A DNA stretch of 64,000 nucleotides. It comes from Candidatus Aminicenantes bacterium. GTDB taxonomy: Bacteria > Acidobacteriota > Aminicenantia > Aminicenantales > JAFGAV01. Made by a program: the position numbers and the translations under genes. The notes beneath the pieces are model-generated. The model saw only the letters and a list, made by a program, of their open reading frames with translations. It ran no database searches and was not told the origin of the DNA. The DNA lies in contig OY969762.1 of NCBI GenBank assembly GCA_963702835.1, positions 2,181,501-2,245,500 of the forward strand, read 5' to 3'. Below are positions 11,091-47,342 of this stretch, one piece after another; positions within the stretch are counted from its first letter, which is position 1, and each line of letters starts with the position of its first letter.

Positions 11091-11964
11091 AATAAATGTA
11101 GATGTCCTCCAAGGTCGGCTTCTCCTCGGCGATGCTCACCGCCTCCACCAGGCGAGAGGGCTCCTCGCCGCCGGTGAGCATGAGGCGAAGCGTTCGGCCG
11201 TGGAGATAGGCGTTCCGGCCCGCTCCCCCCCGCTCTTCGAGCCGCCTGAGGGCCTCGAAGACATTCCCCCGGGGCAGGATTCGAAAGATGCGGGCGGGGA
11301 AGGTCCGCTTCAGCCGGGCGATGCTGTCCTGGAGCAGAACCCGGCCTTTCTTCAGGAAGACGATAGAGTCGCCTTTCTCCGCCTCGGCCAGGTAGGGCGT
11401 GGCCATGAGGATCGTCCGGCCTTCATCCCGCAGCTCCCGGATGATGTCGTAGAACTCGATCCGGCTCAAGGGGTCCACCCCGGTAGTGGGCTCGTCGAGG
11501 AGCAGCAGGCGGGGCGAAGCCAGGAGCATGGCCGACAGGGCTAGTTTCTGTTTCATCCCGCCCGAAAGCGCGCCGGCCCGGCGGCGGCGGAAGGGCAGCA
11601 TGCCGGTCCGCTCCAGGAGCTTTTTTTTCATCTCCTCGCGGCGCCGGCGGGGCACGCCGTGTATGTCGGCGAAAAAATTCAGGTTCTCCTCGACGGTCAG
11701 GTCGGCGTACAGCGAAAACCGCTCGGGCATGAAGCCGGCCGCCTTGGTCATGCGGCTTGGTTCGTCGCCGATATCCCGGCCATCCAGAGTGACGCGTCCG
11801 CTGTCCTGGCTGACGAGCCCGACCACGATCCGCAGCAGGGTGGACTTGCCGGCTCCGTCCGCGCCGGCCAGGACCGTGACCGAACGGGGCGGCACGTCCA
11901 GGGTGACGTCCTCCAGGGCGCGCAGGCCGGCATAGGATTTGGAGATGTGCTCGAGACCAACCAT
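11074..11964 (-). CDS. ABC transporter ATP-binding protein (second ATPase of the operon)
   Basis: Walker A GADGAGKST, signature LSGGMKQK, Walker B LLLLDEPTTGVD. I place the start at ATG 11964 (MVGLEHISKSY), 1 nt after the HlyD stop. The track ORF extends to 12243 only by overlapping the HlyD gene. Confidence 0.85.
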   Translation of the reverse strand: MVGLEHISKSYAGLRALEDVTLDVPPRSVTVLAGADGAGKSTLLRIVVGLVSQDSGRVTLDGRDIGDEPSRMTKAAGFMPERFSLYADLTVEENLNFFADIHGVPRRRREEMKKKLLERTGMLPFRRRRAGALSGGMKQKLALSAMLLASPRLLLLDEPTTGVDPLSRIEFYDIIRELRDEGRTILMATPYLAEAEKGDSIVFLKKGRVLLQDSIARLKRTFPARIFRILPRGNVFEALRRLEERGGAGRNAYLHGRTLRLMLTGGEEPSRLVEAVSIAEEKPTLEDIYIYYERQA

Positions 11965-11965
11965 G

Positions 11966-12859
11966 CTATTGTGGCCGAAAAACAACCGTGACCGGCAGCC
12001 CCTCCTTGAGGACGCCCGTCTCTTTATTAACCTTAACTTTAACCTCGAAGAGGAGCGCTTCCCGCTCTTTCTCGGAAAGGATGTACTTCGGCGAGAACTC
12101 GGCTTCCCGGCCGAAGAAGGAAACCGTGCCGGCCAGGGGCTTTCCGGGAAGGCCGTCCACCCGGACCTCGGCCCGGTCGCCCAGCCGGAGGCGGCCGATT
12201 TCCCGTTCTTCAAGAAAGACCTCGATATACAGGCTGTCCTCATCCAGGATATCGGCCAGGGCTGTGCCGGGCAGGAGCGTTTCTCCGCCGGAAACGAACG
12301 TCTCCAGGACGACGCCGTTGGCCGGCGAGAGGATGATCATATCCTGGCGGGCCAGTTCCAGCGAGCGCCTCTTGTTCCCCAGCTTTTCCTTCTGAATTTT
12401 CAGGGCGGCCAGGCTTTTCTCCGCCTCGAAGAGCCCCGTCTCCGCTTCCAGGAGCTGGAGCCTGGCTTTGTCCAGCTGATCGCCCGGGACGGCCGCTTCT
12501 TTTTCCAGCCGGGCCAGCCGTTCCGCCTGGCGCCGCAAGTAGTCCACGTTGGCCCGCACGGAGGCCAGCTTCTTCAGGAGGCGGGATTCCTGGTTGGCCA
12601 GCTCCTCCCCGGTCAGTTCGAGCTCCTCCAACCCGTTCAAGATTTTGTCCTGGTTGAGCTCGCCCATCACCTCACCGCGCCGGAGGCGCTGGCCTTCGGC
12701 GGCCGTCCATTTATCCAGCCTTCCGGCGGCCAAGGTTCGGACGGTGGCCACCTGCCCCCGAACCGTGCCCGGCGCCCGGATGACATCATCCTTCCGGCGG
12801 CAGGCCAGCAGACCCGCCGCCAGGCCGAGGGCTATGACCGCGCTGATCACTTTCTTCAT
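11966..12859 (-). CDS. HlyD-family membrane fusion protein (YbhG-like)
   Basis: 297 aa with an N-terminal signal anchor (MKKVISAVIALGLAAGLLAC), a long coiled-coil segment and a C-terminal beta domain. 4-nt overlap with the TolC gene. Confidence 0.85.
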   Translation of the reverse strand: MKKVISAVIALGLAAGLLACRRKDDVIRAPGTVRGQVATVRTLAAGRLDKWTAAEGQRLRRGEVMGELNQDKILNGLEELELTGEELANQESRLLKKLASVRANVDYLRRQAERLARLEKEAAVPGDQLDKARLQLLEAETGLFEAEKSLAALKIQKEKLGNKRRSLELARQDMIILSPANGVVLETFVSGGETLLPGTALADILDEDSLYIEVFLEEREIGRLRLGDRAEVRVDGLPGKPLAGTVSFFGREAEFSPKYILSEKEREALLFEVKVKVNKETGVLKEGLPVTVVFRPQ

Positions 12860-14175
12860 CGTCCTGCTCCTTGGCGGCCGATGAGCGTCTGGATGCGGAC
12901 ATCGGCCAGGCTCTGTTCGATGTCGAGCTCCGTCTTCAAAGACCGGTATTTTTCCAGGTTGGCCACGGCCGCCAGATAATCAAGGTTGGAGATCTGGCTC
13001 TCCCGGTAAAGGCTATCTTTGAGCTTGACATCCTCCTCTGCATCCCGGACCAGGCTGCCGGCCAGCGTCTGCTTGGCCCGGAGCGACCTTTTGATCTCGT
13101 AAACCTGCTTGAGTCCCTTCTCCGTCTCCCTTATAAAATCCTGCCGCTGGCTGGCCAGCTTTCTCTTCTCCACCTCGCTCAAGGCCAGGTCGCGGTCCGA
13201 CTGGCTGCGGTTGATGAGGGGCACGGTCAAGGTCAGGCCGGCCTGCACATAGAGCGACCAGTCCTCTTTGAAGAAGTTCACCCCGGGCTTGCCGTAATGC
13301 AGCTCATAGGTGCCGGCCAACTGGGGCAGCCTCGCCGCGGCGGCCGCTTTGCGGCCAGCCTCGACCAGAAGGCCCTGCTCCTCAAAGGCGGCCAGCAGGG
13401 GATGGCCCTGGTTGAAAGCGGCCAAGGAATCCTCGATCGTCCCGGCGGCCTCCAGGCCCGCGGGGTCCACTTCTTCCGGGTCCAGGCCGCACAGGGTCTG
13501 GAAGGCGATCCTCTCCTGCTCGACCTGCTGGCCGATATCTTCCAGGTTGAGCCGGACCTCATCCACCCGGCTTCGCGTCTCCAAGAGATCGGACCGGCGG
13601 GCCAGCTGTTCCCGCACAAAGGCCTCTATTTTTTCGAGGTGCAGGCCGAGGTTTTCCAGGAGCCTGCCCAAGGAATCGCGCTTGGCCAGCAGGAGGCGGT
13701 AGGTCAGGAAGGAGAATTTGACCTGGCCGGCCAGGTCGTTCCTCACCAATTCGGTCCGTTTCTGCTCCAGGAGGCCCTTGATTTCCTCCATCCGGATGGC
13801 CTGGTTGATGGCGCCGCCGGTGTAGAGCGGCTGGACCAGGGTCATCCTCAGGTCGTAAAAATCGTGAGGGGCGGACAGAAGCAGCATATTCTCCGGGATG
13901 CCCAAGTCCGGCGGAAGAATGGGAAAATCTTTGGCCATGACCTGGACCGCCTCCGAAGAGAACCGGTAGGACCCGCCGGCGTCAATCCGGAAGAGCCGCT
14001 GCCGGAGGGCGTAGCTCCGGCCGATACGGGCTGCCTCCTGGCCCAGGAGCTGGCGCTCCACGGCCGGGCTCTGGGCCCAGGCTTGTTCGACCGCCTGTTG
14101 CAGGCTGACCTTGGAAAAGAGCGGACCCGCCGCCGCCAGGATGATTGCCTGAAGAACCCATATCCGCTTATTCAT
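12856..14175 (-). CDS. TolC-family outer membrane efflux protein
   Basis: OEP-type repeats and the signal peptide MNKRIWVLQAIILAAAGPLFS. I start at that Met (14175); the track ORF begins at 14232. Confidence 0.85.
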   Translation of the reverse strand: MNKRIWVLQAIILAAAGPLFSKVSLQQAVEQAWAQSPAVERQLLGQEAARIGRSYALRQRLFRIDAGGSYRFSSEAVQVMAKDFPILPPDLGIPENMLLLSAPHDFYDLRMTLVQPLYTGGAINQAIRMEEIKGLLEQKRTELVRNDLAGQVKFSFLTYRLLLAKRDSLGRLLENLGLHLEKIEAFVREQLARRSDLLETRSRVDEVRLNLEDIGQQVEQERIAFQTLCGLDPEEVDPAGLEAAGTIEDSLAAFNQGHPLLAAFEEQGLLVEAGRKAAAAARLPQLAGTYELHYGKPGVNFFKEDWSLYVQAGLTLTVPLINRSQSDRDLALSEVEKRKLASQRQDFIRETEKGLKQVYEIKRSLRAKQTLAGSLVRDAEEDVKLKDSLYRESQISNLDYLAAVANLEKYRSLKTELDIEQSLADVRIQTLIGRQGAGR

Positions 14176-35000: not shown

Positions 35001-37484
35001 CTATCCGCCGACCCTGTCCAGCGCCTTAAGCAGGCGGCGGGCGTTCTTGGCCTTCTCCGCCAGCGGAATGTCATCCACCAGCGGCAACAAATAGGGTTTG
35101 ATGTCTTTGTCCAGCAGGCTGTCCAGCAGCTCGATCGAATAATCAATGGCCTTCTTGGTACCGGCCAGCAGGTTCTGATAGGCTTTGCGGATGTCCTCAG
35201 CCGGGTAGATGAGGCCGAGCAGAGCGAAGATGCTCTTCAGAAACCGAGACAGGGAGGGCTCCAGGCCGCGGGCTAAATCATCCTTCTTCTGTCCGGGGCT
35301 CAATTCGGTCAGCTCCTGGAGGCTCATATAGGATCGTTTGAGGAGGCGGAGCACGCCGCTGTCGATAATGGAATCAGAGAAAACAAGGTCGGGGTGGGCG
35401 GACTTGATTTTGGCCATGGCCTCGATCAGCTCGGCCTCCAGGTCCGCCCCGTCCCGGCCAAACTCCTGCTGCAGGATGTCGGCCGCCCGCTGGGTGCCGA
35501 TGCGGGCCAGAATGTCCGGAATGGCCCGCCGCAGCCGCAGGTCCTCTTGGGGGTCGGCCAGATAATCCTTGAGCGCGCCGACGATCTTCTCTCCGTATTC
35601 GACCAGCGCCCGGCTGGCCGCCTGAGCCACCGCCGGCCGGGCCAGGCCGGCCACGACGTAGGGCAGGAGGTCGCGCCGCTTCAAGCGGCCGGCGCTGTCT
35701 AGGGCATAGTTGGCCACTTCGGCTGATTCGTCCCGCAGCAAACGGACCAGGTTGCCGCCCAGCGTAGAATCGGCATCCATCAGGCCCAACGCTTTGGCCG
35801 CCTCCAAGCGGGCCGTCTCCGACTCCCGGCTGCGGCCGGCCATCACTTTTTTAAAATATCGGCCGATGGTTTCCTGATAAATGCTCAGGTTCATGATTTT
35901 CTGAACCTCGGCGTCGAGCGCCTCCTCGGGCAGGCTGTCGTCCAATTCCGGGAACAGCGTTTCGCCGTCCACCCCGAGGAGAGAATCCAGAGCTCCAGCC
36001 CGCAGCTCCCCCGACCGCTGGGCGATAATCCGCCTCAGTTCGGGGCTAAGCTGCTCGCGATGGATGAGGTCGTACAGGTTCATGGCATAAAGGACCGAAC
36101 TCCGGTTCCGGCTCTCCAGGGTATCGAACACGAGCTTGGTCATGTCCACATCGATCTGCTCCAGGACCAGGCGGTCGGCGTCCTCCCACTTGATCTTGAG
36201 GTGGTTCTTGACCTCTGAAGCGTATTCCCGGGTGATGAGGACGGCCAGGGCCGCCCAGCCCAGGGCGAAGGCGGCCGCCAGCAGGCTCACCCCCCGCACC
36301 GTGAGCGGAAGAACGAGGAGCAGGATGGCGGCGATGGCGTCGGCGAATTTGTTGACGAACATGTCGATGAAGACTTTGGCCTTGTATTTGATGTCCGCCG
36401 GGACGGGGATGTAGAGCAGTTCCCGAATGGACTGGTTCAGGGTATGGCTCAAGCTCTTATCCAAACCCTTGACCGGGACCGCCCAGAATAGGAGCGAGGC
36501 GACGGGCACGAAAAAGATGGCTCCTGCTCCCAGGACCATCAAGGCCGGCGCCACCAGCAAGCCGGTCAGAAGGCCGAAGTGCTTGAGGATACGGTTGGCC
36601 AGCAGAAGATTGAGCAGAGTGGAAAAGACCAGCAGCCCCAGGAAGAACGTGCCCAAAAAGGAGGTCAGGGCATCTTTATGGGGAAAAGCTTTATTCACGA
36701 TCGCGCTGAATTGGTAGTCCAGCAAGGTGGTCACCACAATGCCGGAGAGCATGAGCCCGGCCAGCAGGACGAGGTAGCGGTTCCGCCGCACGATTCGGAA
36801 GCTCTCCGCGTAGCCGACCTTCTGACGGTCGCGGCTGGCCGAAGCTTCGGGCTTGGCCTCCCCTTCCTCCCGCCGGAAGGCTCCCAGGCGGCGGACGACG
36901 AGCAGGGCCAGGGCCAGCAGGGCCGGGCAGATCAGGAGAAGGTTTTCGGTGCCGAGGACTTTGGCCAAGCGCCAGGCGAGGAGAGCGCCGGCCACCCCGC
37001 CCAGCAGCCCGCCGCTCACCAGGAAGGTCACCAGCCTCCGTGCCTGGCGCGGGTTGTAGATGTCGTTGACCATCATCCAGAATTGCATGACCGAGGTGAC
37101 GATAAACAAGTCGGACCAGAACCAGAATATAATGGACAGCCACGGCCAGCGGAAGCGGAACAGCCACCAGAAGAGAAACAGGTTGGAGATGAAAAACAGA
37201 AGGCTGGCGGAGAGGTAGGCCAGCCGGTCGAGCCGGGCCAGCAGCCGGGAGTTGAGGGAGACGGCCAGGATCATCAACGCGGCGGTGAGGAGGTAGGCGT
37301 AGGGCAGCCGCTCGATGTGCATCCTGTCCAGATAGAGCGACAGCTTGACGGGCTTGATGACATAGACGGCGAAGGTGATGAGGAAAAAATAGAGGAACAG
37401 CCCGAAAACCGGCCGGGATTCATCGGGCCGGACGTCGGTCAGGCGCTTCAGGAACCGATAGCCCAGGCCCTCCGGCCCCTTCAC
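35001..37484 (-). CDS. TLC/Npt-like (ATP:ADP antiporter family-like) MFS transporter fused to a C-terminal HEAT-repeat domain
   Basis: 827 aa. The N-terminus FLKRLTDVRPDESRPVFGLFLYFFLITFAVYVIKPVK plus about 11-12 TM helices resemble TLC/Npt carriers. The C-terminal ~380 aa is helical with PBS-lyase/HEAT-like repeats (ARLEAAKALG...LLRDESAEVANYALDSAG). GTG start in a GTGA overlap with the upstream paralog. Confidence 0.7.
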   Translation of the reverse strand: MKGPEGLGYRFLKRLTDVRPDESRPVFGLFLYFFLITFAVYVIKPVKLSLYLDRMHIERLPYAYLLTAALMILAVSLNSRLLARLDRLAYLSASLLFFISNLFLFWWLFRFRWPWLSIIFWFWSDLFIVTSVMQFWMMVNDIYNPRQARRLVTFLVSGGLLGGVAGALLAWRLAKVLGTENLLLICPALLALALLVVRRLGAFRREEGEAKPEASASRDRQKVGYAESFRIVRRNRYLVLLAGLMLSGIVVTTLLDYQFSAIVNKAFPHKDALTSFLGTFFLGLLVFSTLLNLLLANRILKHFGLLTGLLVAPALMVLGAGAIFFVPVASLLFWAVPVKGLDKSLSHTLNQSIRELLYIPVPADIKYKAKVFIDMFVNKFADAIAAILLLVLPLTVRGVSLLAAAFALGWAALAVLITREYASEVKNHLKIKWEDADRLVLEQIDVDMTKLVFDTLESRNRSSVLYAMNLYDLIHREQLSPELRRIIAQRSGELRAGALDSLLGVDGETLFPELDDSLPEEALDAEVQKIMNLSIYQETIGRYFKKVMAGRSRESETARLEAAKALGLMDADSTLGGNLVRLLRDESAEVANYALDSAGRLKRRDLLPYVVAGLARPAVAQAASRALVEYGEKIVGALKDYLADPQEDLRLRRAIPDILARIGTQRAADILQQEFGRDGADLEAELIEAMAKIKSAHPDLVFSDSIIDSGVLRLLKRSYMSLQELTELSPGQKKDDLARGLEPSLSRFLKSIFALLGLIYPAEDIRKAYQNLLAGTKKAIDYSIELLDSLLDKDIKPYLLPLVDDIPLAEKAKNARRLLKALDRVGG

Positions 37485-39970
37485 GGCCGCGCCTCCGGCA
37501 GGTCTTTCAACAGGGAGCGGAAGCGCCGCACCCGCTCGCGGAGCGGATAGTCCTCCAAGATGGGGAACAGGGCATCCCTGATGTTTGTGTTCAAGAAACT
37601 GTCCAGGAGCTCCAGGGCATAGGCCCTGGATTCCCGGGTTCCGGACAGCCAGTTCTGGTAAGCTTTGAAAATATCTTCATGGGCATAGACCAGGCCCACA
37701 AGCTTGAAAATGCTTAAAAGGACCGCTTCCAGAGTCCTGGGCCGGTCCGGCCCTTCGGCCTTAACCGTTCCATCGCCGGAGCCCTCCTTGGCCTCGGCCA
37801 GAAAGGCCTGATAGTAGCGCTTGAATTCCTGCTCGAGCTTTTTCAGGACCAAGGCCGGATCAAAACTGACCTTGGCCTGGCCGGACCGGACCCTGTCCAG
37901 GGCGTCGATGATTTCGTCATCCAGGTCCCCTTGGCCGCAGCCGAGTTGCCAGAGCAAAAAATCCACGGCCTCCTGGTTCCCCACCCGGCCCAGAGCGGCG
38001 GCCATGTTTTTCCGCCGCTCCAAAGGCTCATGAACATCGGCCAAATGGTCGGCCAGGGTCCCAGCGATCCTGGCCCCGTATCTCTCCAGGGCCTCGGCGG
38101 CGTCCTGCCTGAACCTGGGGTCGCCCAGCCGCCGCACCAACTCGGGCACAAACTCCCGGCGGCCCGATCGTCCGGCGCTGTCTATGGCGTAGCGGACAAC
38201 CTCGGCCGAATCGTCTGCCAGCAGATCCTCCAGCCGCTGCACCAGGGGGGATTGTCCGGGCAGGAGGCCCAGCATCTTGGCGATTTCCATGCGGGTCACG
38301 GCGTCGGTGGCTTTTCGCTCCCCCAGAGTCCGCTCCAGGTAGCCCTGCATGACCTCCTGATAGACGTCCAGGGCCATGATCTCCTCGACATCGCGCTTCA
38401 GCGCCTCCTCCTCGGGCGCGCTGAATACTTGGGCCAGCGGCCCGGCCGACTCCGACTCGATCAAGCCGGCCAAGGCCGAGGGCCGCCCCTCCTCGGGCTC
38501 GGCCAGGAGAAGCGTTCTGACCTCGGGGGTCAGCTTGTTCTGCCGGATAAGCTCGTAGACATGCAGGGCGTAGAGGACCGGGCTCCGCCGTCGGCTTTCC
38601 AGCAGGTCGAAGACGGTTTTGGTGAAAGCGACATCCACCTGCACCTCGACCAGACGATCCCCGCGGTCCCAGCGGCCGCGCAGTTTTTCCTTGATGAGGC
38701 GCACGTAATCGGAGCCGGCGCGGAAGTTGAGCCCGATCCAGGCCACCAGACAGAGGAGCGACAGGAAGCTGACTTTCAACAAATCATGGGGCCAGGGCAG
38801 GGCCAAAGCCCCCAGCAGCAGAAGAGCCCCCAGGGTCCTGGAAAGACGATTGAGGAACATGTCGATAAAGACCTTGGCCCGGTATTTCTGCTCGGGAGCC
38901 ACCGGAAAATAGAGCAGTTCGCGGGCGGACTGGTTGACCGAATAGGACAGGCTTTTCTCGCTGCCCTTGAGGGCCACGGCCAAGGCCAGCACCGGCCAGG
39001 CCGTGAGGCCCAGGGTGCAGGCCAGGATGATCACCGGGTAGAGAAGGAGAATGCGGCGTATTCCGTAACGGTCCACGAAGCGGCTGGTGCCCAGGAATTG
39101 GAGCAAGAAGGAGAAGACCAGCAGCCCGGAATTGAACAGGCCGAAAAAGGAGGTCAGGTTGCCCCTGACCGTCCTCTCGATGACGTGCTTGGACTGCCAG
39201 TCGATGAAGGTGGCGATCAGGCCGGAGAGCAGGACGATCCCGGCCAGGAGGCGGAGGTAACGGTCCTGCCGGACGGTCTGCAGGCCATCCCTGAAGCCCG
39301 CCTTCTCCTGACCGGCCGAACGGCCGGCCGTCTGGGCCGGACCGGGGGGAGCCTCAGCCGCCCGTTTTCTCTGCTGGCCATAGACCCGATTCACGACCGG
39401 GATGGCGGCACACAGCAGGCCGCCGCTCAGCCACAACAGATTGTAGGACCATCGATCGGCCAATACATAAGTCAGGAGGCCGCCCAGGATGCCGCCCAGA
39501 ATGCCGCCGCTGACGATGAAACCGATGAGCCGTTTGGCCTCCCGGGGATTGTACACATCATTGACCGCGATCCAGAACTGGGTCATCAGGACCACGGCCA
39601 GAACATTGGCCCACACATAGTAGACCAGAACCAGCCACTTTCCGCTGCGGGGAAAAAGAAAAAAGAAGGCCGTGCCGGTCAGGGCGAAAAAAAGCAGAGT
39701 GGCGACGAGCAGCGATTGCCGCCTGACCCGGGCCTGGAGCCTGGCCATGAAGGCGGCCACCAGGGCAACGAAAAAGGTCGTGGCGTAGGCCAGGGGAAGG
39801 TTCTCCGAACCCAGCCGGTTGAGGAAGCTCGCGTCCCTGATGCTCTTGAAGATGGTGAAAGGCGCGGTAATGAGGAAGAAATAGAAGAAAAAGAGGAGTG
39901 CGGTCGCCTCCTCGCCGGGCTTGACCCACGGCAGGCGCGGGAAGAACCTTGAAGGCCGATCCATCCGCAT
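37481..39970 (-). CDS. TLC/Npt-like MFS transporter fused to a C-terminal HEAT-repeat domain (paralog)
   Basis: 829 aa with the same architecture as 35001..37484 (PGEEATALLFFFYFFLITAPFTIFKSIRDA...; C-terminal LLADDSAEVVRYAIDSAGRSG...). Confidence 0.7.
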   Translation of the reverse strand: MRMDRPSRFFPRLPWVKPGEEATALLFFFYFFLITAPFTIFKSIRDASFLNRLGSENLPLAYATTFFVALVAAFMARLQARVRRQSLLVATLLFFALTGTAFFFLFPRSGKWLVLVYYVWANVLAVVLMTQFWIAVNDVYNPREAKRLIGFIVSGGILGGILGGLLTYVLADRWSYNLLWLSGGLLCAAIPVVNRVYGQQRKRAAEAPPGPAQTAGRSAGQEKAGFRDGLQTVRQDRYLRLLAGIVLLSGLIATFIDWQSKHVIERTVRGNLTSFFGLFNSGLLVFSFLLQFLGTSRFVDRYGIRRILLLYPVIILACTLGLTAWPVLALAVALKGSEKSLSYSVNQSARELLYFPVAPEQKYRAKVFIDMFLNRLSRTLGALLLLGALALPWPHDLLKVSFLSLLCLVAWIGLNFRAGSDYVRLIKEKLRGRWDRGDRLVEVQVDVAFTKTVFDLLESRRRSPVLYALHVYELIRQNKLTPEVRTLLLAEPEEGRPSALAGLIESESAGPLAQVFSAPEEEALKRDVEEIMALDVYQEVMQGYLERTLGERKATDAVTRMEIAKMLGLLPGQSPLVQRLEDLLADDSAEVVRYAIDSAGRSGRREFVPELVRRLGDPRFRQDAAEALERYGARIAGTLADHLADVHEPLERRKNMAAALGRVGNQEAVDFLLWQLGCGQGDLDDEIIDALDRVRSGQAKVSFDPALVLKKLEQEFKRYYQAFLAEAKEGSGDGTVKAEGPDRPRTLEAVLLSIFKLVGLVYAHEDIFKAYQNWLSGTRESRAYALELLDSFLNTNIRDALFPILEDYPLRERVRRFRSLLKDLPEARP

Positions 39971-40004: not shown

Positions 40005-40352
40005 TCAGTCCTTGAGAAAACTCTGCAGGGCCATCTCCTCTTCGTCAAAGATCTCCAGCACCTTGGTCAGCATGGTGATTTGGAAGATGAGATAGAGCTT
40101 CTTGGAAATCCGGGCGATTTTGAGCTTGCCGCCCAGGTTGTGAGTGGAGATGTAGCTGGCCAGGATCTCGCCTACGCCGAAGCTGTCGATGAACTCGACC
40201 TTTTCAAAATTGAGCAGGATGTGCTTCTTCCCGGATTCGAGCTGGTCCTTGACCAGTTGATGGAGGGTCAGGTCGGTGATGTCGGAGCGTCTGATCTCCC
40301 CCTCGATATCGAAAATAACGATATCGTTCTTTTCGCGTTTCTTGATGTCCAT
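40005..40352 (-). CDS. STAS-domain anti-sigma-factor antagonist-like protein (SpoIIAA/RsbV type)
   Basis: 115 aa. NFEKVEFIDSFGVGEIL keeps the phosphorylatable Ser of the DSSG-type motif. It is the first gene of the minus-strand operon. Confidence 0.85.
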   Translation of the reverse strand: MDIKKREKNDIVIFDIEGEIRRSDITDLTLHQLVKDQLESGKKHILLNFEKVEFIDSFGVGEILASYISTHNLGGKLKIARISKKLYLIFQITMLTKVLEIFDEEEMALQSFLKD

Positions 40353-40749: not shown

Positions 40750-40778
40750 TTGAACAATCTTGGCTGTTCTTCTAGTAT
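40750..40778 (+). promoter_or_regulatory. Putative sigma70 promoter of the phosphatase/kinase-like operon
   Basis: TTGAAC (40750..40755), 17 nt spacer, TAGTAT (40773..40778), about 30 nt upstream of ATG 40811. Confidence 0.4.
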
Positions 40779-40810
40779 TTAAATGGAGAATAAATAAGAA
40801 AGGACGGGAA

Positions 40811-41851
40811 ATGAAAAGAAAAGCAGGTCTCAAAATCCTGCTTGGATTGTTAGCCTTCTGCCTGCCCCTGTGCGCCGAGACCCCCTGTATCTGGACGGGA
40901 GTGGAGCGGATCGTAGCCGTGGGCGACCTGCACGGCGATTATGCCAATTTCGTCGCCATCCTTGAAGGAACGAATGTTGTGAACCGAGACCTCCACTGGG
41001 TCGCCGGCCGGACTCATCTGGTCCAGACCGGCGACATCCTGGACCGGGGGCCCGAAGGCAAGAATATCTTCAACCTTTTGATAAACTTGGAAAGAGAGGC
41101 TGAGGCCGCAGGGGGGCATGTCCACTGCCTGACCGGCAACCATGAGGAAATGAACATGGCGGGCATCGCCTTTGATTATCCCGAGTATATGACCGTGGAG
41201 CAGTTCCTGTCTTTCCTGCCCGATGGCTACCAACAAATGAGAGAAAGCCGGTTTCGGCAAAGATGGGTAGCCCAGAATCGCTCCGCCACTCGCGACGATG
41301 GTCCGCCGCGTAAAGCTTTGCACGATTTCTGGACGGAGGTGATCAGCTCCGACCAGGAGGCCCGGTCCCAATATCTCAAATTTTTTCGCCAACACTACGG
41401 CCAGTGGATCGCCCAGCACAATGCCGTGATCAAGATCAACGAGACGGTCTTCGCTCACGGCGGCATCAACGAGAAATATTCCTTGAAGCCGCTGGCCGAG
41501 ATCAACGACATGGTGCGTTCCGATTTTCAGGACCTTTTAAGCCAAAGACAATTTATCCCCAAGGTTCTCTATGCCCGCGACAGCCCGATGTGGGATCGCG
41601 ATCTGGCCCAGCAGGACGAGGCCCTCTTTGAGGACACGGTGAATTCGATCCTGGCCCATCTCGGAGCCCGGCACATCGTCATCGCCCACACGCGCCTGAC
41701 CCCCCCTTCGGCCAAAGCCATGGAACGTTTCGGGGGGAAAGTGTGGGACATCGATACGGGCATTTCCTCGTTCTACGGCGGTCATCTGAGTGCCTTGATA
41801 ATCGAAGGGGATAATTTTCAGGTTTGGGGGTTGAGCGATGAACATAACTAA
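40811..41851 (+). CDS. Exported PPP-family (calcineurin-like/Shelph-like) metallophosphatase
   Basis: Signal peptide MKRKAGLKILLGLLAFCLPLCA, with the GDLHGD, GDILDRG and GNHE motifs in canonical order. The track ORF starts earlier (40760). Confidence 0.85.
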   Translation: MKRKAGLKILLGLLAFCLPLCAETPCIWTGVERIVAVGDLHGDYANFVAILEGTNVVNRDLHWVAGRTHLVQTGDILDRGPEGKNIFNLLINLEREAEAAGGHVHCLTGNHEEMNMAGIAFDYPEYMTVEQFLSFLPDGYQQMRESRFRQRWVAQNRSATRDDGPPRKALHDFWTEVISSDQEARSQYLKFFRQHYGQWIAQHNAVIKINETVFAHGGINEKYSLKPLAEINDMVRSDFQDLLSQRQFIPKVLYARDSPMWDRDLAQQDEALFEDTVNSILAHLGARHIVIAHTRLTPPSAKAMERFGGKVWDIDTGISSFYGGHLSALIIEGDNFQVWGLSDEHN

Positions 41852-42641
41852 AAACTTAGGGCTGGCGGCCCTTATGTTGACCGGAATCGGCTTGAGCCTG
41901 GCCTGCCGGCCGCGAACTATGCCCCCCCCGCCCTCTCCCGGCGAGCTTCTGGAACGGTTCCTGCTCGAAGCGCGGGTAACCGCCGTGGCCAAAGAACTTC
42001 AGTCAGGCCGGATGAGTGCCTGGCTGGTGACGCTCAATGACGGGAAAACGACGCGGAAGGCCTTCTTCAAATCCGTCCGCCGGCCAAGGCCGACCCTGAT
42101 GCCTGACAGCTACACCTATGAGCTGGCCGCTTTTGCGCTAAACAAACTCCTCGGCTTGGAACTAGTGCCGATAACTGTGGAGAGGCAAATCGACGGCCGG
42201 AGCGGCTCTCTGCAGCTGTTTCTGGAAGGCGTTGAAACAGAAAAGTCCAGGCTGCTCAAAAATCTCCAACCTCCGGATCTGCAGGCCTATCAGGATCAAC
42301 TTGATGAGATCACCCTGTTGGAAAACCTGACCTGTACCCCCCGGCAGGATCTGGGAGATATTCTGATCCAGACGGACACCTGGAAGGTGTGGCGGGTAGA
42401 TTTTTCGGAAGCCTTCATGCCGGCCAGGGAGCTCCAGCCGGAACGTCTCATCCGGCGCGCCTCACGAAGGTTCGTCAATGCCCTGCGCAACTTGGACGAA
42501 GCGCTGGCCCGGCGGAGGCTGGCCCGCTATCTCAATGCCTCCGAAATGGAGGCCTTGTTCAAACGCCGGCAGCTCATTCTCGACGAGATTGACCGGCTCA
42601 TCAAAGAAAAAGGAGAAGCCGCCGTCCTTTTTTCTCCTTAG
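41838..42641 (+). CDS. Exported PI3K/PI4K-like kinase-fold paralog 1 (catalytic motifs degenerate; probable pseudokinase)
   Basis: 267 aa with a hydrophobic N-terminus ending LSLAC. It aligns with paralogs 2 and 3 (DSYTYELAAFALNKLLGLELVP, GSLQLF), but the catalytic loop reads TCTPRQDLGDIL and VDFSEAF. 14-nt overlap with the phosphatase gene. Confidence 0.55.
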   Translation: MNITKNLGLAALMLTGIGLSLACRPRTMPPPPSPGELLERFLLEARVTAVAKELQSGRMSAWLVTLNDGKTTRKAFFKSVRRPRPTLMPDSYTYELAAFALNKLLGLELVPITVERQIDGRSGSLQLFLEGVETEKSRLLKNLQPPDLQAYQDQLDEITLLENLTCTPRQDLGDILIQTDTWKVWRVDFSEAFMPARELQPERLIRRASRRFVNALRNLDEALARRRLARYLNASEMEALFKRRQLILDEIDRLIKEKGEAAVLFSP

Positions 42642-42751
42642 CTTTCCCCGGCCTGACACATCCGCCCATGTTGATATTTGATTTTAGCCGGCGTCTTATT
42701 TAAGATAAGGCCATAAGGGAGCGGAAGCACGAGCCGGCGGGGAGAAAATAA

Positions 42752-43591
42752 ATGAAAAAGGGGCGAACAGCCGTATGTGCCGTTTTCATTTTTCTGGCCC
42801 TGGGCTGGGGCCAGCGCGCTGGGGGGCAGTTCACCGCCGCCGAGCTGGCCCAACGGCCGAAATGGGAAGAATTCCTCAAGACGGCCGAGATCGTCAAATG
42901 GGAGGATATCGGCGAGGGCGTGACCAAGCCGGTGAAGCTCTATCTCCAGAAAGGCGACTTGGAAGCCAAAGCGGTGTGGAAGAATCCCAGCGCCATCCAG
43001 ATGGGTGTCCCGGACAGCTGGACATACGAAATCGCCGCCTATGAGATGGACAAGCTCATCGGGTTGAACATGGCGCCGCCCACCGTGGAGCGGGAATTCC
43101 AGGGCAAGAAGGGATCGCTCCAGCTGTGGGCCACGACCAAGTACTCCTTGCTCAAGATCATGGAGCAGGGACTCTCCATCCCGGAAGCGGCCCGGGAGAG
43201 CACCGACAAGATGAAATATGTCGTCCGAGTGTTCGACTGCCTGATCGCCAACGACGACCGAACCCAACAGAACCTCTTGTACACCGAGGACTGGCGGACG
43301 ATCGTCATCGATCATTCCCGGGCCTTCCGCTCCACCAAAGAGTATGTCCAGAGGCTGGTCTATGGTCGAAACGGCATTAAGAGCGCCGAGGGACGGCTCC
43401 TTCTCTTTCGCCGCGTCCCGCGGAGCCTGGTGGACAGTATCCGAGCTCTCGACGCAAACAAGATCCGTCAGGCCGTCGGCCCTTATCTCAGCGAAGAAGA
43501 GATCCAGGCCGTCATGGCCCGGCAAAAACTCCTGCTTGAGGAGATCGCCCTCATGATCAAAGAGCAGGGGGAAAACGCGGTCTTATACTGA
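42752..43591 (+). CDS. Exported PI3K/PI4K-like kinase-fold paralog 2
   Basis: 279 aa with a signal peptide, AVWK, DSWTYEIAAYEMDKLIGLNMAPPT, LIANDDRTQQNLL and VIDHSRAF. Confidence 0.6.
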   Translation: MKKGRTAVCAVFIFLALGWGQRAGGQFTAAELAQRPKWEEFLKTAEIVKWEDIGEGVTKPVKLYLQKGDLEAKAVWKNPSAIQMGVPDSWTYEIAAYEMDKLIGLNMAPPTVEREFQGKKGSLQLWATTKYSLLKIMEQGLSIPEAARESTDKMKYVVRVFDCLIANDDRTQQNLLYTEDWRTIVIDHSRAFRSTKEYVQRLVYGRNGIKSAEGRLLLFRRVPRSLVDSIRALDANKIRQAVGPYLSEEEIQAVMARQKLLLEEIALMIKEQGENAVLY

Positions 43592-43619
43592 TTCTTATGA
43601 TGTCCAAGGGAGGGGAAGG

Positions 43620-44450
43620 ATGAACAGACGCTTCATGATCCTGGTTTCCATTCTTGGCTTGGTGGGCCTAAGCCTTCCGGCTGCCGCCCAGTTCCTGCCC
43701 GAAGAGGTGGCCGAACGGGCCAAGTGGGAGGATTTCCTGACCACGGCCGAGATCGTCGGCCAGGAACAGTTGAAAGGCGAAGGGGCGGTGACCAACCCCT
43801 GGAAGCTGACCCTGAAAAAGGATGACCTTCAGCACTATGCCCTGTGGAAGAACATCAACGTGATGGTGGGGCGCTACACGGACAGCTGGAAATGGGAGGT
43901 GGCCGCCTACCGGATCGATAAGCTCTTGGACCTGAATATGGTGCCGCCCACCATGGAGCGCCGCTTCCAGGGCGACCACGGGTCAATCCAGATTTGGGCC
44001 GACGTGGAAATGACGCTCAAACAGAAAATGGACAAAAACATCAAGATGCCTTCCTATAAGATCTTCTTCTGGAACAGGGCCCTCTACCTGCAGCGATTTT
44101 TCGACAACTTGATCGGCAACGAAGACCGTCACCAGAACAACTACCTCATCACCAAGGATTGGCGCTTGATTCTCATCGACCATTCCCGGAGCTTCCGCAC
44201 CTCTAAAAAATTCACCACGGAGCTCCTCTACACCGAAAAGCGGCCGGAAGGGCCGATGGAAATGAAGGAGCTGCCCCGGACGCTGGTGGACAAGCTCAAG
44301 GCTCTGACCGCGGAAAGCGTCAAGGCCGCCGTGGGAGAGTATCTGACCGATGAAGAGGTCAAGGCCGTGCTCCTTCGGCGCGACCTGATGCTCCTGGAAA
44401 TCGACAAGCTGATCAAAAAATACGGCGGAGAAGACAAGGTCCTGTACTGA
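43620..44450 (+). CDS. Exported PI3K/PI4K-like atypical kinase paralog 3 (motifs intact)
   Basis: 276 aa with the signal peptide ...LSLPAAAQ, ALWK, DSWKWEVAAYRIDKLLDLNMVPPT, the catalytic loop LIGNEDRHQNNYLI (DRHxxN) and LILIDHSRSF. A strong RBS (GGGAGGGGAAGG) precedes the ATG. Confidence 0.65.
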   Translation: MNRRFMILVSILGLVGLSLPAAAQFLPEEVAERAKWEDFLTTAEIVGQEQLKGEGAVTNPWKLTLKKDDLQHYALWKNINVMVGRYTDSWKWEVAAYRIDKLLDLNMVPPTMERRFQGDHGSIQIWADVEMTLKQKMDKNIKMPSYKIFFWNRALYLQRFFDNLIGNEDRHQNNYLITKDWRLILIDHSRSFRTSKKFTTELLYTEKRPEGPMEMKELPRTLVDKLKALTAESVKAAVGEYLTDEEVKAVLLRRDLMLLEIDKLIKKYGGEDKVLY

Positions 44451-44492: not shown

Positions 44493-44915
44493 CTAGCCGG
44501 AAGGAATCGTCATCCACAAGGTCAGGACGTTTTGTTTTTCTTCCCGGCGGTAATCAAGGCCTTCCATCAGAGTGCGCATGAGATGAACGCCGAACCCGCC
44601 CTTGACCCCATCCCTCACATAACGGTCCAGGTCCGGCGGCTCAACGTCCCGGGGATCGAAGGGATGGCCGTCGTCCCTGATCTCGATGGTGAGCCGGCCG
44701 CCCTCGAGCCTGGCCCAAAGACGGATCTCGCCCTGGCCCTGGGCATAGGCATAGCAGATGATGTTGAGACAGGCTTCGGTCACGGCCAGCTCCAAGTGAT
44801 AGGTCGGTTCGGCCGGCAGGTTGAGCCGGACGGCGACATCTTTCAGGAAGAGGCGGACCAGGGCGACCCCGGCCATATCGCCCTGGACAACGATCTTCTC
44901 GTTCAAACCCACCAT
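44493..44915 (-). CDS. RsbW/SpoIIAB-type anti-sigma-like Ser/Thr kinase (HATPase_c)
   Basis: HLELAVTEACLNIICYAY (N-box), IRDDGHPFD (G1) and GGFGVHLMRTL (G2). I start at MVGLNEK (ATG 44915); the track ORF runs to 45038. Confidence 0.8.
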   Translation of the reverse strand: MVGLNEKIVVQGDMAGVALVRLFLKDVAVRLNLPAEPTYHLELAVTEACLNIICYAYAQGQGEIRLWARLEGGRLTIEIRDDGHPFDPRDVEPPDLDRYVRDGVKGGFGVHLMRTLMEGLDYRREEKQNVLTLWMTIPSG

Positions 44916-44984
44916 TTTTCGATTTCCCCACCATTTTACCAGAACAGGCATCGGGGAGAAACTTTTAATGTTGGATTGCCGGAT

Positions 44985-45013
44985 TTGACATTTTGCAGAT
45001 GATCCATTAAGAA
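44985..45013 (+). promoter_or_regulatory. Putative sigma70 promoter of the TLC-EF-hand gene
   Basis: TTGACA (44985..44990), 17 nt spacer, TAAGAA (45008..45013). An AAGGAGGG RBS precedes ATG 45048. Confidence 0.35.
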
Positions 45014-45047
45014 ATAGACATTCAACGGGAGTGGACAAGGAGGGACT

Positions 45048-46556
45048 ATGAGCGATTCCCCCGGCTCACCCAACGTTTTCTATAAGTTCCTCAGGCTGTT
45101 CACCGACATCCGGCCCGGAGAGGCGCCCAAAGCCCTGCTCCTAGCCCTGAACATTTTCCTGTTGCTCCTAGCCTATTATCTCATCAAGCCGGTCCGGGAG
45201 GCGCTCTTGCTTGTGGATAAAGACGCGCCCAGGATCAAGAGCTATCTCAGCGGCGCCCAGGCCTTCCTCCTGGTCTTCGTCATCATGGCCTTCAGCCTCC
45301 TTGCCTCCAAGGTGCCCCGGCATAAGCTCATTACCTGGGTGACCCTATTCTTCATCTCCAACTTGGTCATCTTTTATATCCTGCACCTGGCGGGCGTCGG
45401 CGCCGGCGCCATGGGCATCGTCTTTTTTATCTGGATCGGTATTTTCAACCTGCTGGTGGTGGCCCAGTTCTGGGGTTTCGCCAATGATCTCTACATAGAT
45501 GAGGTCGGCAAGCGAATTTTCCCCCTGATCGCTTTCGGCGCCACCCTGGGCGCCGTAACCGGCAGCCGAATCGCCAAGCTGATCATCGAGCCTCTGGGCA
45601 AGTTTAACTTGATGCTCCTCTCCGGCGCAGTGTTGGGGGTGTGCATCCTTATGGCGGTCTTGATTCATCGGCGGGAGGTCCGCTCACCCCAGAGCGGGGG
45701 ACAGCCCGACGCCCACCTGCAGGAGAAGCCGCTCAAACCGGGCGACGGATTCAGCCTGGTGGTCAAGACCCGCTACTTGCTTTACATTGCCCTGGCCATC
45801 CTGGTTTATAATTTCATCAACACCATCGGCGAATACATCATCTCCGACGTCAGCACCCGGTCGGGGGGAAAGGCTTTTGAGGCTACCTCCTCCGTTCAAG
45901 AACAGCTCAATCTTAAGTGGTTTCGGGAAAGGGATCTCAACAACGATAATATTCTGGCCGATAAGGAAGTCCCCAATAAAAAAACCTTTGAACGGCTGGA
46001 TGACAACAAGGACAAAGTCATTACTTTAAAAGAAGCGCGCGAATTTTTCATCGGGGAATATAACGGCAAGTTTTTCTCCGACTACCAGTTCCTGACCAAC
46101 ATCCTGGCCTTGGTCATTCAGTTATTTCTGGTATCCCGCATCTTCCGCTGGGTGGGAGTGGGGGGGGCGCTTTTCGTCCTGCCCTTCATCGCCCTGGGCG
46201 GGTATGCCTTCATCTCCCTGGGCGCCACCCTGCTCCTGGTCAAGTGGGTCAAGTCCTTGGAAAACGGGACGGACTATTCCTTGATGAACACCATCAAGGC
46301 CGCCTTATTCCTGGTCACGCCCCGCGAGGAAAAGTACAAGGCCAAGGCGGCCATCGACACTTTCTTCGTCCGGGGCGGGGACGCCCTGGCCGCCCTGGCC
46401 GTATTCATCGGTACGACCTTCCTGGCCATGAAGATCGAAAAATTCGCTATCCTGAACATCGCCATCGTCCTTGTCTGGCTATTACTGGCTTACCTGATCA
46501 TGCGGCAGTATAAGCTGAAAAAAGCCCAGTCGGCGGTTGTTCAGGACCATAAATAA
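45048..46556 (+). CDS. TLC/Npt-like MFS transporter with an inserted EF-hand pair
   Basis: 502 aa. FLRLFTDIRPGEAPKALLLALNIFLLLLAYYLIKPVREA belongs to the same family as the two HEAT fusions. A loop insertion carries DLNNDNILADKE (45933..45968) and DDNKDKVITLKE (45999..46034). Confidence 0.75.
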   Translation: MSDSPGSPNVFYKFLRLFTDIRPGEAPKALLLALNIFLLLLAYYLIKPVREALLLVDKDAPRIKSYLSGAQAFLLVFVIMAFSLLASKVPRHKLITWVTLFFISNLVIFYILHLAGVGAGAMGIVFFIWIGIFNLLVVAQFWGFANDLYIDEVGKRIFPLIAFGATLGAVTGSRIAKLIIEPLGKFNLMLLSGAVLGVCILMAVLIHRREVRSPQSGGQPDAHLQEKPLKPGDGFSLVVKTRYLLYIALAILVYNFINTIGEYIISDVSTRSGGKAFEATSSVQEQLNLKWFRERDLNNDNILADKEVPNKKTFERLDDNKDKVITLKEAREFFIGEYNGKFFSDYQFLTNILALVIQLFLVSRIFRWVGVGGALFVLPFIALGGYAFISLGATLLLVKWVKSLENGTDYSLMNTIKAALFLVTPREEKYKAKAAIDTFFVRGGDALAALAVFIGTTFLAMKIEKFAILNIAIVLVWLLLAYLIMRQYKLKKAQSAVVQDHK

Positions 46557-46580: not shown

Positions 46581-47342
46581 ATGAAGATGGTCACGATCAT
46601 CATGAGAACAGCAATCATTCTGGCCTTGGCAGCGGGCATCCTGGCCGGCCAGGCGCAGACTCAGGCTCAAACGCAGCCCCAGACCCCCGCCCCCCAGGAG
46701 CCGGCCTTCCGGCCGGCCCTGCTGGAGCAGCCCTTTCCCGACTTCAGCCTGCCCACCTACCAGGGCGGCAGCCTGACCCTCTCCAGCCTCCGGGGCAAGA
46801 ACGTCGTTCTCATCATTTCCCGCGTCTATGCCGGAGAAGGACGCTACTGCACCATCTGCGACTACAAGTACGCCGAAGCTGTGGAAATCGAGAATAAAGC
46901 CAAGCTCCGCGAAAAATATAATGCCGAGGTGTTGTTCCTTTTCGCCTTCAGCCGGGAAGAAGTGGCCAAATGGCTGGCGGCCTTGCCCGCTCAACTGGAG
47001 AAGATCAAAAACTGGAAGAACCCTCCGGAGCCGGAAAAACTTGACCAGCAGGGAAAAGAGCGAATGGAGCGCATGCGCAAGTTTTTTCCCCTTGACTTGA
47101 GCCTGAAGGAGGGCGAAGTCCCCCTGCCCTTCCCCCTGCTCCTCGATGCCGACCGGAAGCTGTCCAAGACTCTGGGTGTCTTCGCCGCGGAATGGAGCGG
47201 CAGCAAGGCGGACCAAGGCATCCCCAGCGTCTTTATCCTGGACAAGAACGGCGTCCTCCAGTTCAAGTACATCGGCCAGAACACGGCGGACCGGCCCAGC
47301 TACGAGTATTTGATGAAGATCCTGAACATGATCGGAAGGTAA
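46581..47342 (+). CDS. Exported redoxin/AhpC-TSA-like thioredoxin-fold protein
   Basis: 253 aa with a signal peptide and a QT-rich linker. FPDFSLPTYQGGSLTLSSLRGKNVVLI...YCTIC is a peroxiredoxin-like N-terminal pattern. It lies 24 nt after the transporter gene. Confidence 0.65.
   Translation: MKMVTIIMRTAIILALAAGILAGQAQTQAQTQPQTPAPQEPAFRPALLEQPFPDFSLPTYQGGSLTLSSLRGKNVVLIISRVYAGEGRYCTICDYKYAEAVEIENKAKLREKYNAEVLFLFAFSREEVAKWLAALPAQLEKIKNWKNPPEPEKLDQQGKERMERMRKFFPLDLSLKEGEVPLPFPLLLDADRKLSKTLGVFAAEWSGSKADQGIPSVFILDKNGVLQFKYIGQNTADRPSYEYLMKILNMIGR

Follow-up and report, generated by a model that had tools for sequence, protein, structure and literature searches.

A stretch of 64,000 nucleotides from Candidatus Aminicenantes bacterium (assembly GCA_963702835.1, contig OY969762.1, positions 2,181,501 to 2,245,500 of the forward strand; this whole stretch is called the window) carries three tandem genes whose products are bacterial relatives of the Fam20 kinases. 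The interpretation favoured here, with confidence a little better than even, is that of an exported Fam20-like kinase family encoded in one operon with a Shelph-type phosphatase, in which kinases, phosphatase and a pseudokinase act together, nucleotide transporters supply ATP and a STAS/RsbW-like pair exerts control. A previous sequence-only reading of this DNA described the three genes as exported PI3K/PI4K-like paralogs with graded decay of the catalytic loop. It overlooked the phosphatase, its fusions to kinase-like domains and the nucleotide transporters, a context that proved to be the most important part. What is new is a bacterial variant of the secreted atypical-kinase theme, found in a conserved module for which no published description was encountered.

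Kinase fold and nearest relatives

Paralog 1 (41838-42641), paralog 2 (42752-43591) and paralog 3 (43620-44450), all on the plus strand, are open reading frames (ORFs) of 267, 279 and 276 amino acids (aa) that represent the orthogroups G1, G2 and G3, respectively. As already noticed from the letters alone, they can be aligned with each other end to end. Paralogs 2 and 3 share about 44% identity and paralog 1 shares 26-28% with either. The motif strings on which the sequence-only reading was built were all found in the translations, namely NLIGNEDRHQNNYLI with LILIDHSRSF downstream in paralog 3, ANDDRTQQNLL at the loop of paralog 2, TCTPRQDLGDIL at the loop position of paralog 1 and the lysine motifs ALWK, AVWK and AFFK across the three proteins.

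Structures of paralogs 3 and 1 were modelled with AlphaFold (AF2) and compared with known structures by Foldseek. Both models are confident, with a predicted local distance difference test score (pLDDT) of 89.1 for paralog 3 and 92.2 for paralog 1 and a predicted template-modelling score (pTM) of 0.85 for each, and every match obtained is a kinase. The best match of the paralog 3 model is Fam20C (5yh0, template-modelling score (TM) 0.63), and the first nine places for paralog 1 are all taken by Fam20C or Fam20A (TM 0.64-0.69). PI4KII-alpha (TM 0.53-0.60) and Vps34 (TM 0.40-0.48) rank below the Fam20 proteins with both models, and PI3K/mTOR also appears among the lower ranks. A family profile (A2) made from 149 members was searched against solved structures and matched Fam20A (5wrr, E=9.3e-9), Fam20B (5xom, E=3.3e-7), Fam20C (5yh0, E=2.1e-6; 5yh3_C, E=7.3e-6) and the Caenorhabditis elegans Fam20 (E=1e-3); PI4K2B was matched at E=0.012 in the catalytic-loop region only. 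Each Fam20 alignment consists of two collinear stretches, one in the N-lobe and one in the C-lobe, which together span the beta3 Lys, the alpha-C segment, the catalytic loop, the metal-binding Asp and the C-terminal helix. The alpha-C segment, previously likened to a segment of type II PI 4-kinase, aligns instead to 'AEIAAFHLDRILDFRRVPP' of Fam20. Given the Foldseek ranking, the confident models and the profile matches, the atypical kinase fold suggested from the sequence is supported by modelling, and the family is placed between Fam20 and type II PI4K, closer to Fam20. The proposed PI3K/PI4K likeness survives in the fold match and in the DRHxxN loop of paralog 3, but the nearest relative is Fam20 (E=9e-9 to 7e-6 vs 0.012 for PI4K2B).

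Single-sequence Pfam matches are weak and all lie within the kinase clan. Paralog 2 matches HipA_2 with 28.5 bits (cut-off 27) over about 58 of the 240 profile positions, around the catalytic loop, as well as Fam20C (18.1 bits) and PI3_PI4 (13.2 bits). Paralog 3 matches PI3_PI4_kinase (20.2 bits, cut-off 27.1), Fam20C (16.0 bits) and HipA_2 (14.0 bits), and the scan of paralog 1 gave no match. All three proteins thus stay below the gathering thresholds of PF06702 (Fam20; 26.8 bits) and PF00454 (27.1 bits), and HipA_C, the other family to which the paralogs had been compared, was matched by none of them. The SCO1664 model TIGR03843 scores 34.4, 43.2 and 44.6 bits against a cut-off of 172.4, with E-values of 1e-8 to 1e-11 over about 180 aligned residues, so that the three paralogs appear homologous to that family, not members of it. 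The 149 family members gave weak Pfam matches only, of which the recurrent ones are to families of the kinase clan (HipA_2 in 43, PI3_PI4 in 34, Fam20C in 24, FAM198 in 12, ABC1 in 5), and a few orthologs carry precomputed PF00454 matches; the family is captured by no existing Pfam model. One metagenomic representative of 671 aa (P0313) has two tandem kinase-like domains in one polypeptide and is the sole member seen to pass the Fam20C cut-off (29.4 bits); it also passes that of HipA_2 (29.8 bits).

Proteins of this type had been thought rare in bacteria, a view contradicted by an exhaustive search that returned 6,871 family clusters at 50% identity with E<=1e-3, and 968 with E<=1e-30. Homolog searches started from the individual proteins found 2,939 relatives of paralog 3, 2,305 of paralog 2 and 72 of paralog 1; a locus search with the single sequence of paralog 3 gave 5 loci, and a profile query reached more. 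No description of the family was found in the literature searched on Aminicenantes kinases, on periplasmic kinases or ATP and on bacterial 'Fam20-like' proteins. The family is therefore large, bacterial and without annotation or any published description that could be found. Across Aminicenantes genomes the array comprises two to four kinase-like genes, with an extra tandem G2 copy in five loci (L037, L041, L043, L062, L079) and an extra G3 copy in another (L055). Several loci of Aminicenantes or Acidobacteriota type are deposited under titles such as 'uncultured Eubacteriales', 'Hydrothermarchaeota archaeon', 'Clostridiales' or 'Bifidobacteriaceae' (L002, L004, L013, L028, L067, L160 and others). 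These oddly titled metagenome-assembled genome (MAG) records are probably taxonomic mislabels or binning contamination; the lipoprotein encoded in L028 is 100% identical to that of L027, which belongs to Aminicenantia.

Catalytic residues, orthogroups and predicted export signals

Conservation was assessed in orthogroup profiles of 120 paralog-3-type, 120 paralog-2-type and 72 paralog-1-type sequences. The residue set of paralog 3 comprises K77, D88, E93, N167, D169-R-H171, N174 and D187-H-S-R. K77, E93, N167, D169, R170, H171, N174 and D187-H are invariant in G3 (120/120), S189 and R190 are kept in 119-120 sequences, and position 88 is Asp or Glu in 119/120, the remaining one being Ala. The DRHxxN loop with its downstream Asp, which was first pointed out in paralog 3 alone, is hence invariant in its orthologs. 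Measured against the Fam20 catalytic set, paralog 3 is complete, paralog 2 is complete except for H171T and paralog 1 is without D169-R-H. From the loop to the metal-binding segment, paralog 3 reads DRHQNN and then IDHS, which replaces DFG; paralog 2 reads DRTQQN, and paralog 1 shows neither.

In G2, the residues K77, E93, N167, D169, Q172, N174 and D187 are invariant and the loop is fixed as D-R-T-Q-Q-N, with T171 in 117/120 sequences. A hidden Markov model (HMM) search combined with hmmalign revealed that the His position varies across the family (DRN > DRH > DRT) and that D169, N174 and D187 are near-universal. Because the Thr is fixed, the other catalytic-type residues are intact and the His position is variable family-wide, the DRT of paralog 2 can be regarded as a fixed variant at a tolerant position, and the enzyme is probably active. 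The 'lost' His of paralog 2 is thus correctly described as far as the residue is concerned, but it falls on a position at which the commonest residue of the family is Asn.

The beta3 Lys, invariant in G2 and G3, is Lys in 62 and Arg in 9 of the 72 G1 sequences; the alpha-C Glu is Glu in 59 and Asp in 11, and D187 is always kept. G1 has no D-R-H at the canonical place and the catalytic Asp is absent, so the loss of the motif seen in paralog 1 extends to its orthogroup. Its loop is conserved as D-x-G-D, with Asp at the H171-equivalent position in 62/72 and at the N174-equivalent position in 67/72 sequences, and an invariant segment of the D-F-S-E-A-F type lies downstream. Position 88, which aligns with the Mn-coordinating Glu of Fam20C, is acidic in all three window paralogs. 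In the pseudokinase Fam20A this Glu is replaced by Gln (PMC7948968). Since the acidic residue is kept, paralog 1 would be impaired in a different way from Fam20A.

Neighbour-joining recovered each orthogroup as monophyletic, with G2 and G3 as sister groups and G1 on a separate long branch. Divergence within G1 (0.80) is about twice that within G2 and G3 (0.39 and 0.40). The long branch, the monophyly and a set of conserved residues of its own suggest that G1 is an old, functionally shifted and faster-evolving paralog and a candidate pseudokinase. A scenario in which duplicated genes have recently decayed was considered and ruled out, as each paralog belongs to a conserved, monophyletic orthogroup.

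Outside the Aminicenantes (domains of L082-L161; P0313-P0458), Arg, Gln or His frequently occupies the position of the beta3 Lys, for example in the motif A-[IV]-F-R. Such members retain the D-R-N..N loop and D187, and their nucleotide binding may be non-canonical.

Export signals were sought with a heuristic that requires basic residues followed by an 11-residue window with a Kyte-Doolittle mean of at least 1.8 within the first 45-50 residues. After their basic residues, paralogs 1, 2 and 3 reach means of 2.15, 3.09 and 2.94, and the heuristic is satisfied by 119/119 G3, 114/115 G2 and 61/70 G1 sequences and by 129/138 diverse representatives. The hydrophobic signal-like N-termini reported for the three proteins are thus present and recur in homologs. 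Paralog 3 has a Sec-type N-terminus, MNRRFMILVSILGLVGLSLPAAA followed by QF, and G2 and G3 share a conserved junction in which A-x-A is followed by Q-F, ahead of a conserved mature N-terminus. The signal of paralog 1 looks lipoprotein-like, with Cys23 placed directly after the hydrophobic segment in a lipobox-like LSLAC followed by R; this Cys is conserved in the window's clade of G1. Judged by these N-termini, export of the paralogs is likely.

A conserved locus with a phosphatase and putative nucleotide transporters

The first gene of the operon (40808-41851, plus strand) encodes a predicted exported phosphatase of the PPP family. Its ORF is listed from a TTG at 40760; the probable start is the ATG at 40808, which yields the N-terminus MKRKAGLKILLGLLAFCLPLCA, similar in its signal-like make-up to those of the paralogs. 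The protein contains the full PPP motif set (GDLHG, GDILDRG, GNHE), matches Pfam Metallophos above the cut-off (E=5.6e-11) and aligns in two collinear stretches with the Shewanella cold-active protein-tyrosine phosphatase (2z72/1v73/2zbm, E=2e-30). On the basis of these motifs and of the Shewanella match it is assigned, by homology, to the Shelph-type bacterial PPP phosphatases. The gene junctions indicate an operon of the phosphatase and the three paralog genes. The phosphatase stop codon (41849-41851) lies beyond the paralog 1 ATG (41838), giving an overlap of 14 nucleotides (nt); 110 nt separate paralogs 1 and 2 and 28 nt paralogs 2 and 3, and G-rich ribosome-binding sites precede all three kinase-like genes, that of paralog 3 (GGGAGGGGAAGG) immediately 5' of the ATG. 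Scans for sigma-70 promoters and intrinsic terminators between 39900 and 47500 gave no excess over shuffled sequence, and an Rfam scan of the whole window at gathering thresholds gave no match.

Synteny was analyzed in 81 Aminicenantes-type loci, each count being limited to those with enough flanking sequence. The phosphatase gene lies upstream of G1 in 44/53 loci, and in 14/53 both are contained within one ORF. At the fusion junction, examined in 8 loci, a short Pro/Ala/Ser linker without internal hydrophobic segment or signal peptide was found, which identifies these ORFs as true in-frame fusions. Many of the best 150 family clusters are PPP-kinase fusions of 600-900 aa, and comparable fusions are encoded in other Acidobacteriota, Gemmatimonadota, Myxococcota and Gammaproteobacteria. 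It was ruled out that the domain joined to the phosphatase is of the degenerate G1 type in every case, as non-Aminicenantes fusions mostly keep D-R-N..N and many of them replace the beta3 Lys. The cultured Thioalkalivibrio sp. XN8 encodes a 575-aa fusion of signal peptide, PPP and kinase-like domain with a DRN loop and IDHSRAF (L158, 7968-9695, plus strand), which converges on a TLC-like gene (9598-11361, minus strand); this strain could serve as an experimental model.

Three transporter-like genes surround the operon. An NTT/TLC-family transporter-like membrane protein is encoded at 45048-46556 (plus strand) and matches Pfam TLC (PF03219) with 37.7 bits (cut-off 21), TIGR00769 with E=1e-13 (51 bits vs a cut-off of 387) and, as a weak homolog, the ADP,ATP carrier 9j3n of the PDB (E=2.4e-4). 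On the minus strand, a divergent operon includes an 829-aa NTT-HEAT fusion (37481-39970), in which a TLC/MFS domain is joined to C-terminal HEAT repeats (MFS_1 53.9 bits; TLC 39.9 bits, cut-off 21; HEAT_2 40.1 bits, cut-off 27.7; TIGR00769 41 bits, cut-off 387). Downstream of it lies a second NTT-HEAT paralog of 827 aa (35001-37484, minus strand) with 38% identity over 99% of the first. The TLC gene contains two canonical EF-hand loops, DLNNDNILADKE and DDNKDKVITLKE, inserted in a transporter loop (45933-46034). This insertion is confined to the window and the relative nearest to it (L001), is absent from 58 other orthologs and hints at Ca2+ control of the transporter in the window's lineage. 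An AhpC/TSA-type peroxiredoxin-like gene (46581-47342, plus strand) with the signal-like N-terminus MKMVTIIMRTAIILALAAGILAGQAQ directly follows the TLC gene, an arrangement shared only by close relatives of the window (L001, L006, L007).

Two further genes encode putative regulators. The first gene of the divergent operon (40005-40352, minus strand) specifies a STAS-domain anti-sigma-factor antagonist (Pfam STAS E=1e-11; TIGR00377 54.8 bits vs a cut-off of 53.45) that is 75-86% identical in many Aminicenantes loci and is probably a cytoplasmic regulator of the cluster. An RsbW-like anti-sigma factor/serine kinase (44493-45038, minus strand, convergent with paralog 3; HATPase_c_2 E=5e-27; RsbW models E=3e-15, below cut-off) is its probable partner in a partner-switching pair.

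In the synteny sample, G2 directly precedes G3 in 68/76 loci, the RsbW-like gene follows G3 on the opposite strand in convergent orientation in 65/77, and G1 is located upstream in 45/53. The TLC/NTT gene lies between G1 and G2 in 36/53 loci, and in the window and its closest relatives it is relocated to just beyond the RsbW-like gene; a STAS gene is nearby in 25/34 and an NTT-HEAT gene in 24/34. In L027 (8076-8894, minus strand; N-terminus MKIRFFLLSALILLANC), a conserved gene of opposite orientation for a 272-aa lipoprotein-like protein separates the TLC gene from G2. About 32 further loci have it in the equivalent place, and the window lacks it; its product could be a partner or substrate. 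Just past the RsbW-like gene, L027 also encodes a Hanks-type Ser/Thr kinase with C-terminal TPR repeats (11579-13819, minus strand).

More distant loci were collected with a search seeded with the fusions and using phosphatase-motif patterns only, which gave 80 loci in Thermoanaerobaculia, Terriglobales, Vicinamibacterales, Gemmatimonadota, Myxococcota and Gammaproteobacteria. A kinase-like domain was detectable in 45 of them, and in 31 of these 45 a gene for an NTT or NTT-HEAT protein is present as well (median gap 92 nt); in distant Acidobacteriota, NTT-HEAT genes adjoin PPP/kinase genes. Since loci from several phyla pair these genes, the recurring core is a phosphatase, one or more kinase-like domains and an NTT-type transporter, to which the STAS and RsbW-like genes are added mainly in Aminicenantes. 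The module is also present in MAGs assigned to Lysobacter.

Proposed mechanism, rival explanations and known systems

In the proposed mechanism, paralog 3 (DRH) and paralog 2 (DRT) would act outside the cytoplasmic membrane as phosphotransferases on envelope or secreted substrates, most likely proteins, and the Shelph phosphatase would undo the modification. Protein substrates are favoured because the partner phosphatase is homologous to a protein phosphatase. Paralog 1 would be a pseudokinase-type subunit with a lipid anchor. It retains the fold and the Lys, Glu and Asp of the nucleotide pocket, has lost the catalytic Asp, and would bind the phosphatase, and perhaps the kinases, in order to regulate or target them, in the way Fam20A activates Fam20C (PMC7948968). 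This partnership is suggested by the fusions, read in the Rosetta-stone sense, and by the Fam20A/Fam20C analogy. The NTT/TLC and NTT-HEAT transporters would take up periplasmic ADP in return for cytoplasmic ATP and in this way provide the phosphate donor, and the STAS/RsbW-like pair would control the cluster, through expression or activity, from the cytoplasm.

Several points weigh against this interpretation. The ATP-export step is the weakest of the mechanism because, to our knowledge, the characterised NTTs are all importers or exchangers in parasites and plastids, and we know of no case in which an NTT was shown to export ATP to a periplasm. With a leaky outer membrane, ATP in the periplasm would be expensive to maintain, TIGR00769 is matched by the TLC and NTT-HEAT proteins far below its cut-off, and 14 of the 45 distant loci with a kinase-like domain have no transporter within the fetched flank. 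Catalytic activity is, for every family member, a prediction from sequences and models, and the replaced beta3 Lys of many non-Aminicenantes members makes canonical ATP use doubtful in parts of the family. All Pfam kinase models stay below their gathering thresholds for the three paralogs, apart from the marginal and partial HipA_2 match of paralog 2, and signal peptides were assessed by the heuristic alone. Finally, a sugar kinase (Fam20B) and lipid kinases (PI4KII) are found among the relatives, which makes protein substrates less certain.

The most serious competitor, though still improbable, builds on this last point and takes the paralogs for exported kinases of non-protein envelope components, such as glycans, lipids or lipopolysaccharide-type sugars, with the phosphoesterase trimming the same phosphomonoesters. 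Fam20B, which phosphorylates xylose, is the third-best profile match (E=3e-7), type II PI4Ks, which act on an inositol lipid, are strong structural matches, paralog 1 seems to be lipid-anchored and Metallophos enzymes have broad substrate ranges. Furthermore, the glycan kinase Fam20B is taken to represent the ancestral Fam20 activity (PMC7948968). Yet the nearest solved homolog of the phosphatase, which carries the full PPP motif set, is a protein-tyrosine phosphatase, and the synteny sets contain no conserved glycosyltransferase or lipid-biosynthesis genes in the cluster. The one active PI3K/PI4K-like enzyme with two progressively decaying pseudokinase partners of the sequence-only reading is given a smaller chance. 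DRHxxN is indeed confined to paralog 3, whose best Pfam match is PI3_PI4_kinase (20.2 bits), PI4KII-alpha/beta and Vps34 are strong Foldseek matches, and paralog 1, which lacks the catalytic Asp, is a plausible pseudokinase. Paralog 2 does not fit this scheme, as its Thr is fixed in 117/120 sequences, its other catalytic residues, near-universal in the family, are invariant, and the His position varies family-wide with DRN as the commonest form. Graded decay is also contradicted by the three monophyletic orthogroups under conservation, and the assignment to PI4K by the better score of the Fam20 profile (1e-8 vs 0.012) and by PF00454 matches that are sub-threshold for all three proteins.

About as unlikely, or slightly more so, is a use of the fold for other chemistry, such as the AMPylation or glutamylation of SelO and SidJ, or for nucleotide sensing, with the NTT protein delivering the ligand. 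The acidic residues of paralog 1 relocated to the H171- and N174-equivalent positions and the substitution of the beta3 Lys by Arg, Gln or His in many relatives would be in line with it, and reviews note that some pseudokinases catalyse other reactions (PMC10211241; PMC7948968). The canonical Lys, Glu, Asp, Asn and Asp are nevertheless in place in paralogs 2 and 3, and a co-encoded, often fused PPP enzyme of the phosphomonoesterase type fits phosphorylation best. Finally, a role in the cytoplasm as toxin kinases resembling HipA, within a toxin-antitoxin or defence system, is scarcely credible and was ruled out. The marginal HipA_2 match of paralog 2 (28.5 vs 27 bits) and weak ones in 43/149 relatives speak for it, but the former spans only about 58/240 profile positions, HipA_N and HipA_C are not matched, no HipB-like neighbour occurs in 160 loci, signal peptides are near-universal by the heuristic, and the conserved partners are a phosphatase and transporters.

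The periplasm is normally regarded as free of ATP, and the ATP-dependent secretory or extracellular kinases known to us come from animals and a few other eukaryotes. If the favoured mechanism of exported Fam20-like kinases with a Shelph phosphatase is true, it would represent a bacterial extracytoplasmic phospho-regulation with its own ATP supply, assign a testable role to at least a subset of NTT-HEAT transporters, and provide a bacterial relative for studying Fam20 evolution and the pairing of kinase and pseudokinase. The cultured Thioalkalivibrio strain and the Lysobacter-assigned MAGs perhaps make experiments feasible. A wider proposal is tentative and must be called rather doubtful at present. 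It holds that many bacteria, among them Acidobacteriota (with the Aminicenantes) and some Gammaproteobacteria, maintain periplasmic ATP via NTT or NTT-HEAT proteins for Fam20-like writers and a PPP eraser, often fused to a pseudokinase-type domain, under STAS/RsbW control, and that these writers are the prokaryotic sister group, and possible source, of animal Fam20. On this view the enigmatic NTT-HEAT transporters of free-living bacteria would acquire a role.

Among known systems, HipA/HipA_2 (PF20613) and the SCO1664 family (TIGR03843) belong to the same kinase clan as the paralogs, which differ from them in being predicted to be exported and in lacking the HipA N-terminal domain and an antitoxin. 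The actinobacterial SCO1664 proteins are themselves uncharacterised. Type II PI4K and PI3K (PF00454) share the DRHxxN loop with paralog 3 and, in the case of PI4KII-alpha, the fold; unlike PI4K, which works on the cytosolic face, the window proteins are predicted to be exported and have neither the helical accessory domain nor the Cys-rich membrane-anchoring motif. The 829-aa and 827-aa proteins of the cluster have the NTT(TLC)+HEAT architecture of fusions described as widespread in free-living bacteria and as lacking an assigned function (Major et al. 2017, PMC5381601). The contexts published for these fusions involve cyclic-nucleotide-binding domains, whereas kinases and phosphatases are found here. 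A functional analogy exists with SLC35B1/AXER, the ATP/ADP exchanger of the endoplasmic reticulum (PMC6113206, PMC12267056), in that the cluster's proteins, too, would supply ATP to a compartment unable to make it; the transporter family of SLC35B1 is unrelated to NTT.

The closest known system is Fam20 (PF06702), with the Golgi casein kinase Fam20C, the xylosylkinase Fam20B and the pseudokinase Fam20A, which provide the best profile and structural matches. The paralogs are related to Fam20 and stand formally outside it on Pfam threshold, size, disulfides and taxonomy. They are bacterial proteins of 267-279 aa, compared with about 400-580 aa, and possess 0-2 Cys (none in paralog 3), whereas Fam20 proteins have disulfides, described for Fam20A in PMC7948968. 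In PMC7948968 and PMC9758233, Fam20 is described from animals only or as Metazoa-specific. The loop of paralog 3 is DRHxxN, as in PI3K/PI4K, and that of Fam20 is DRHHYE; paralog 1 lost the catalytic Asp and Fam20A the Mn-binding Glu; and the window genes are linked to a PPP phosphatase and NTT transporters. Common to both are A-x-F/W-K at beta3, an acidic residue five positions before E-[IV]-A-A-[FY]-x-[LI]-D-[KR]-[LI]-L...P-P, the G-N-x-D-R-H loop, the [LI]-D-[NH]-[GS]-R-x-F metal-binding segment and a C-terminal helix that ends in G-x-x-x-V-[LI]. Both stand behind a signal sequence and outside the cytosol, as predicted for the window proteins, and both form paralog sets with a catalytically impaired member, Fam20A on one side and, as a candidate, paralog 1 on the other.

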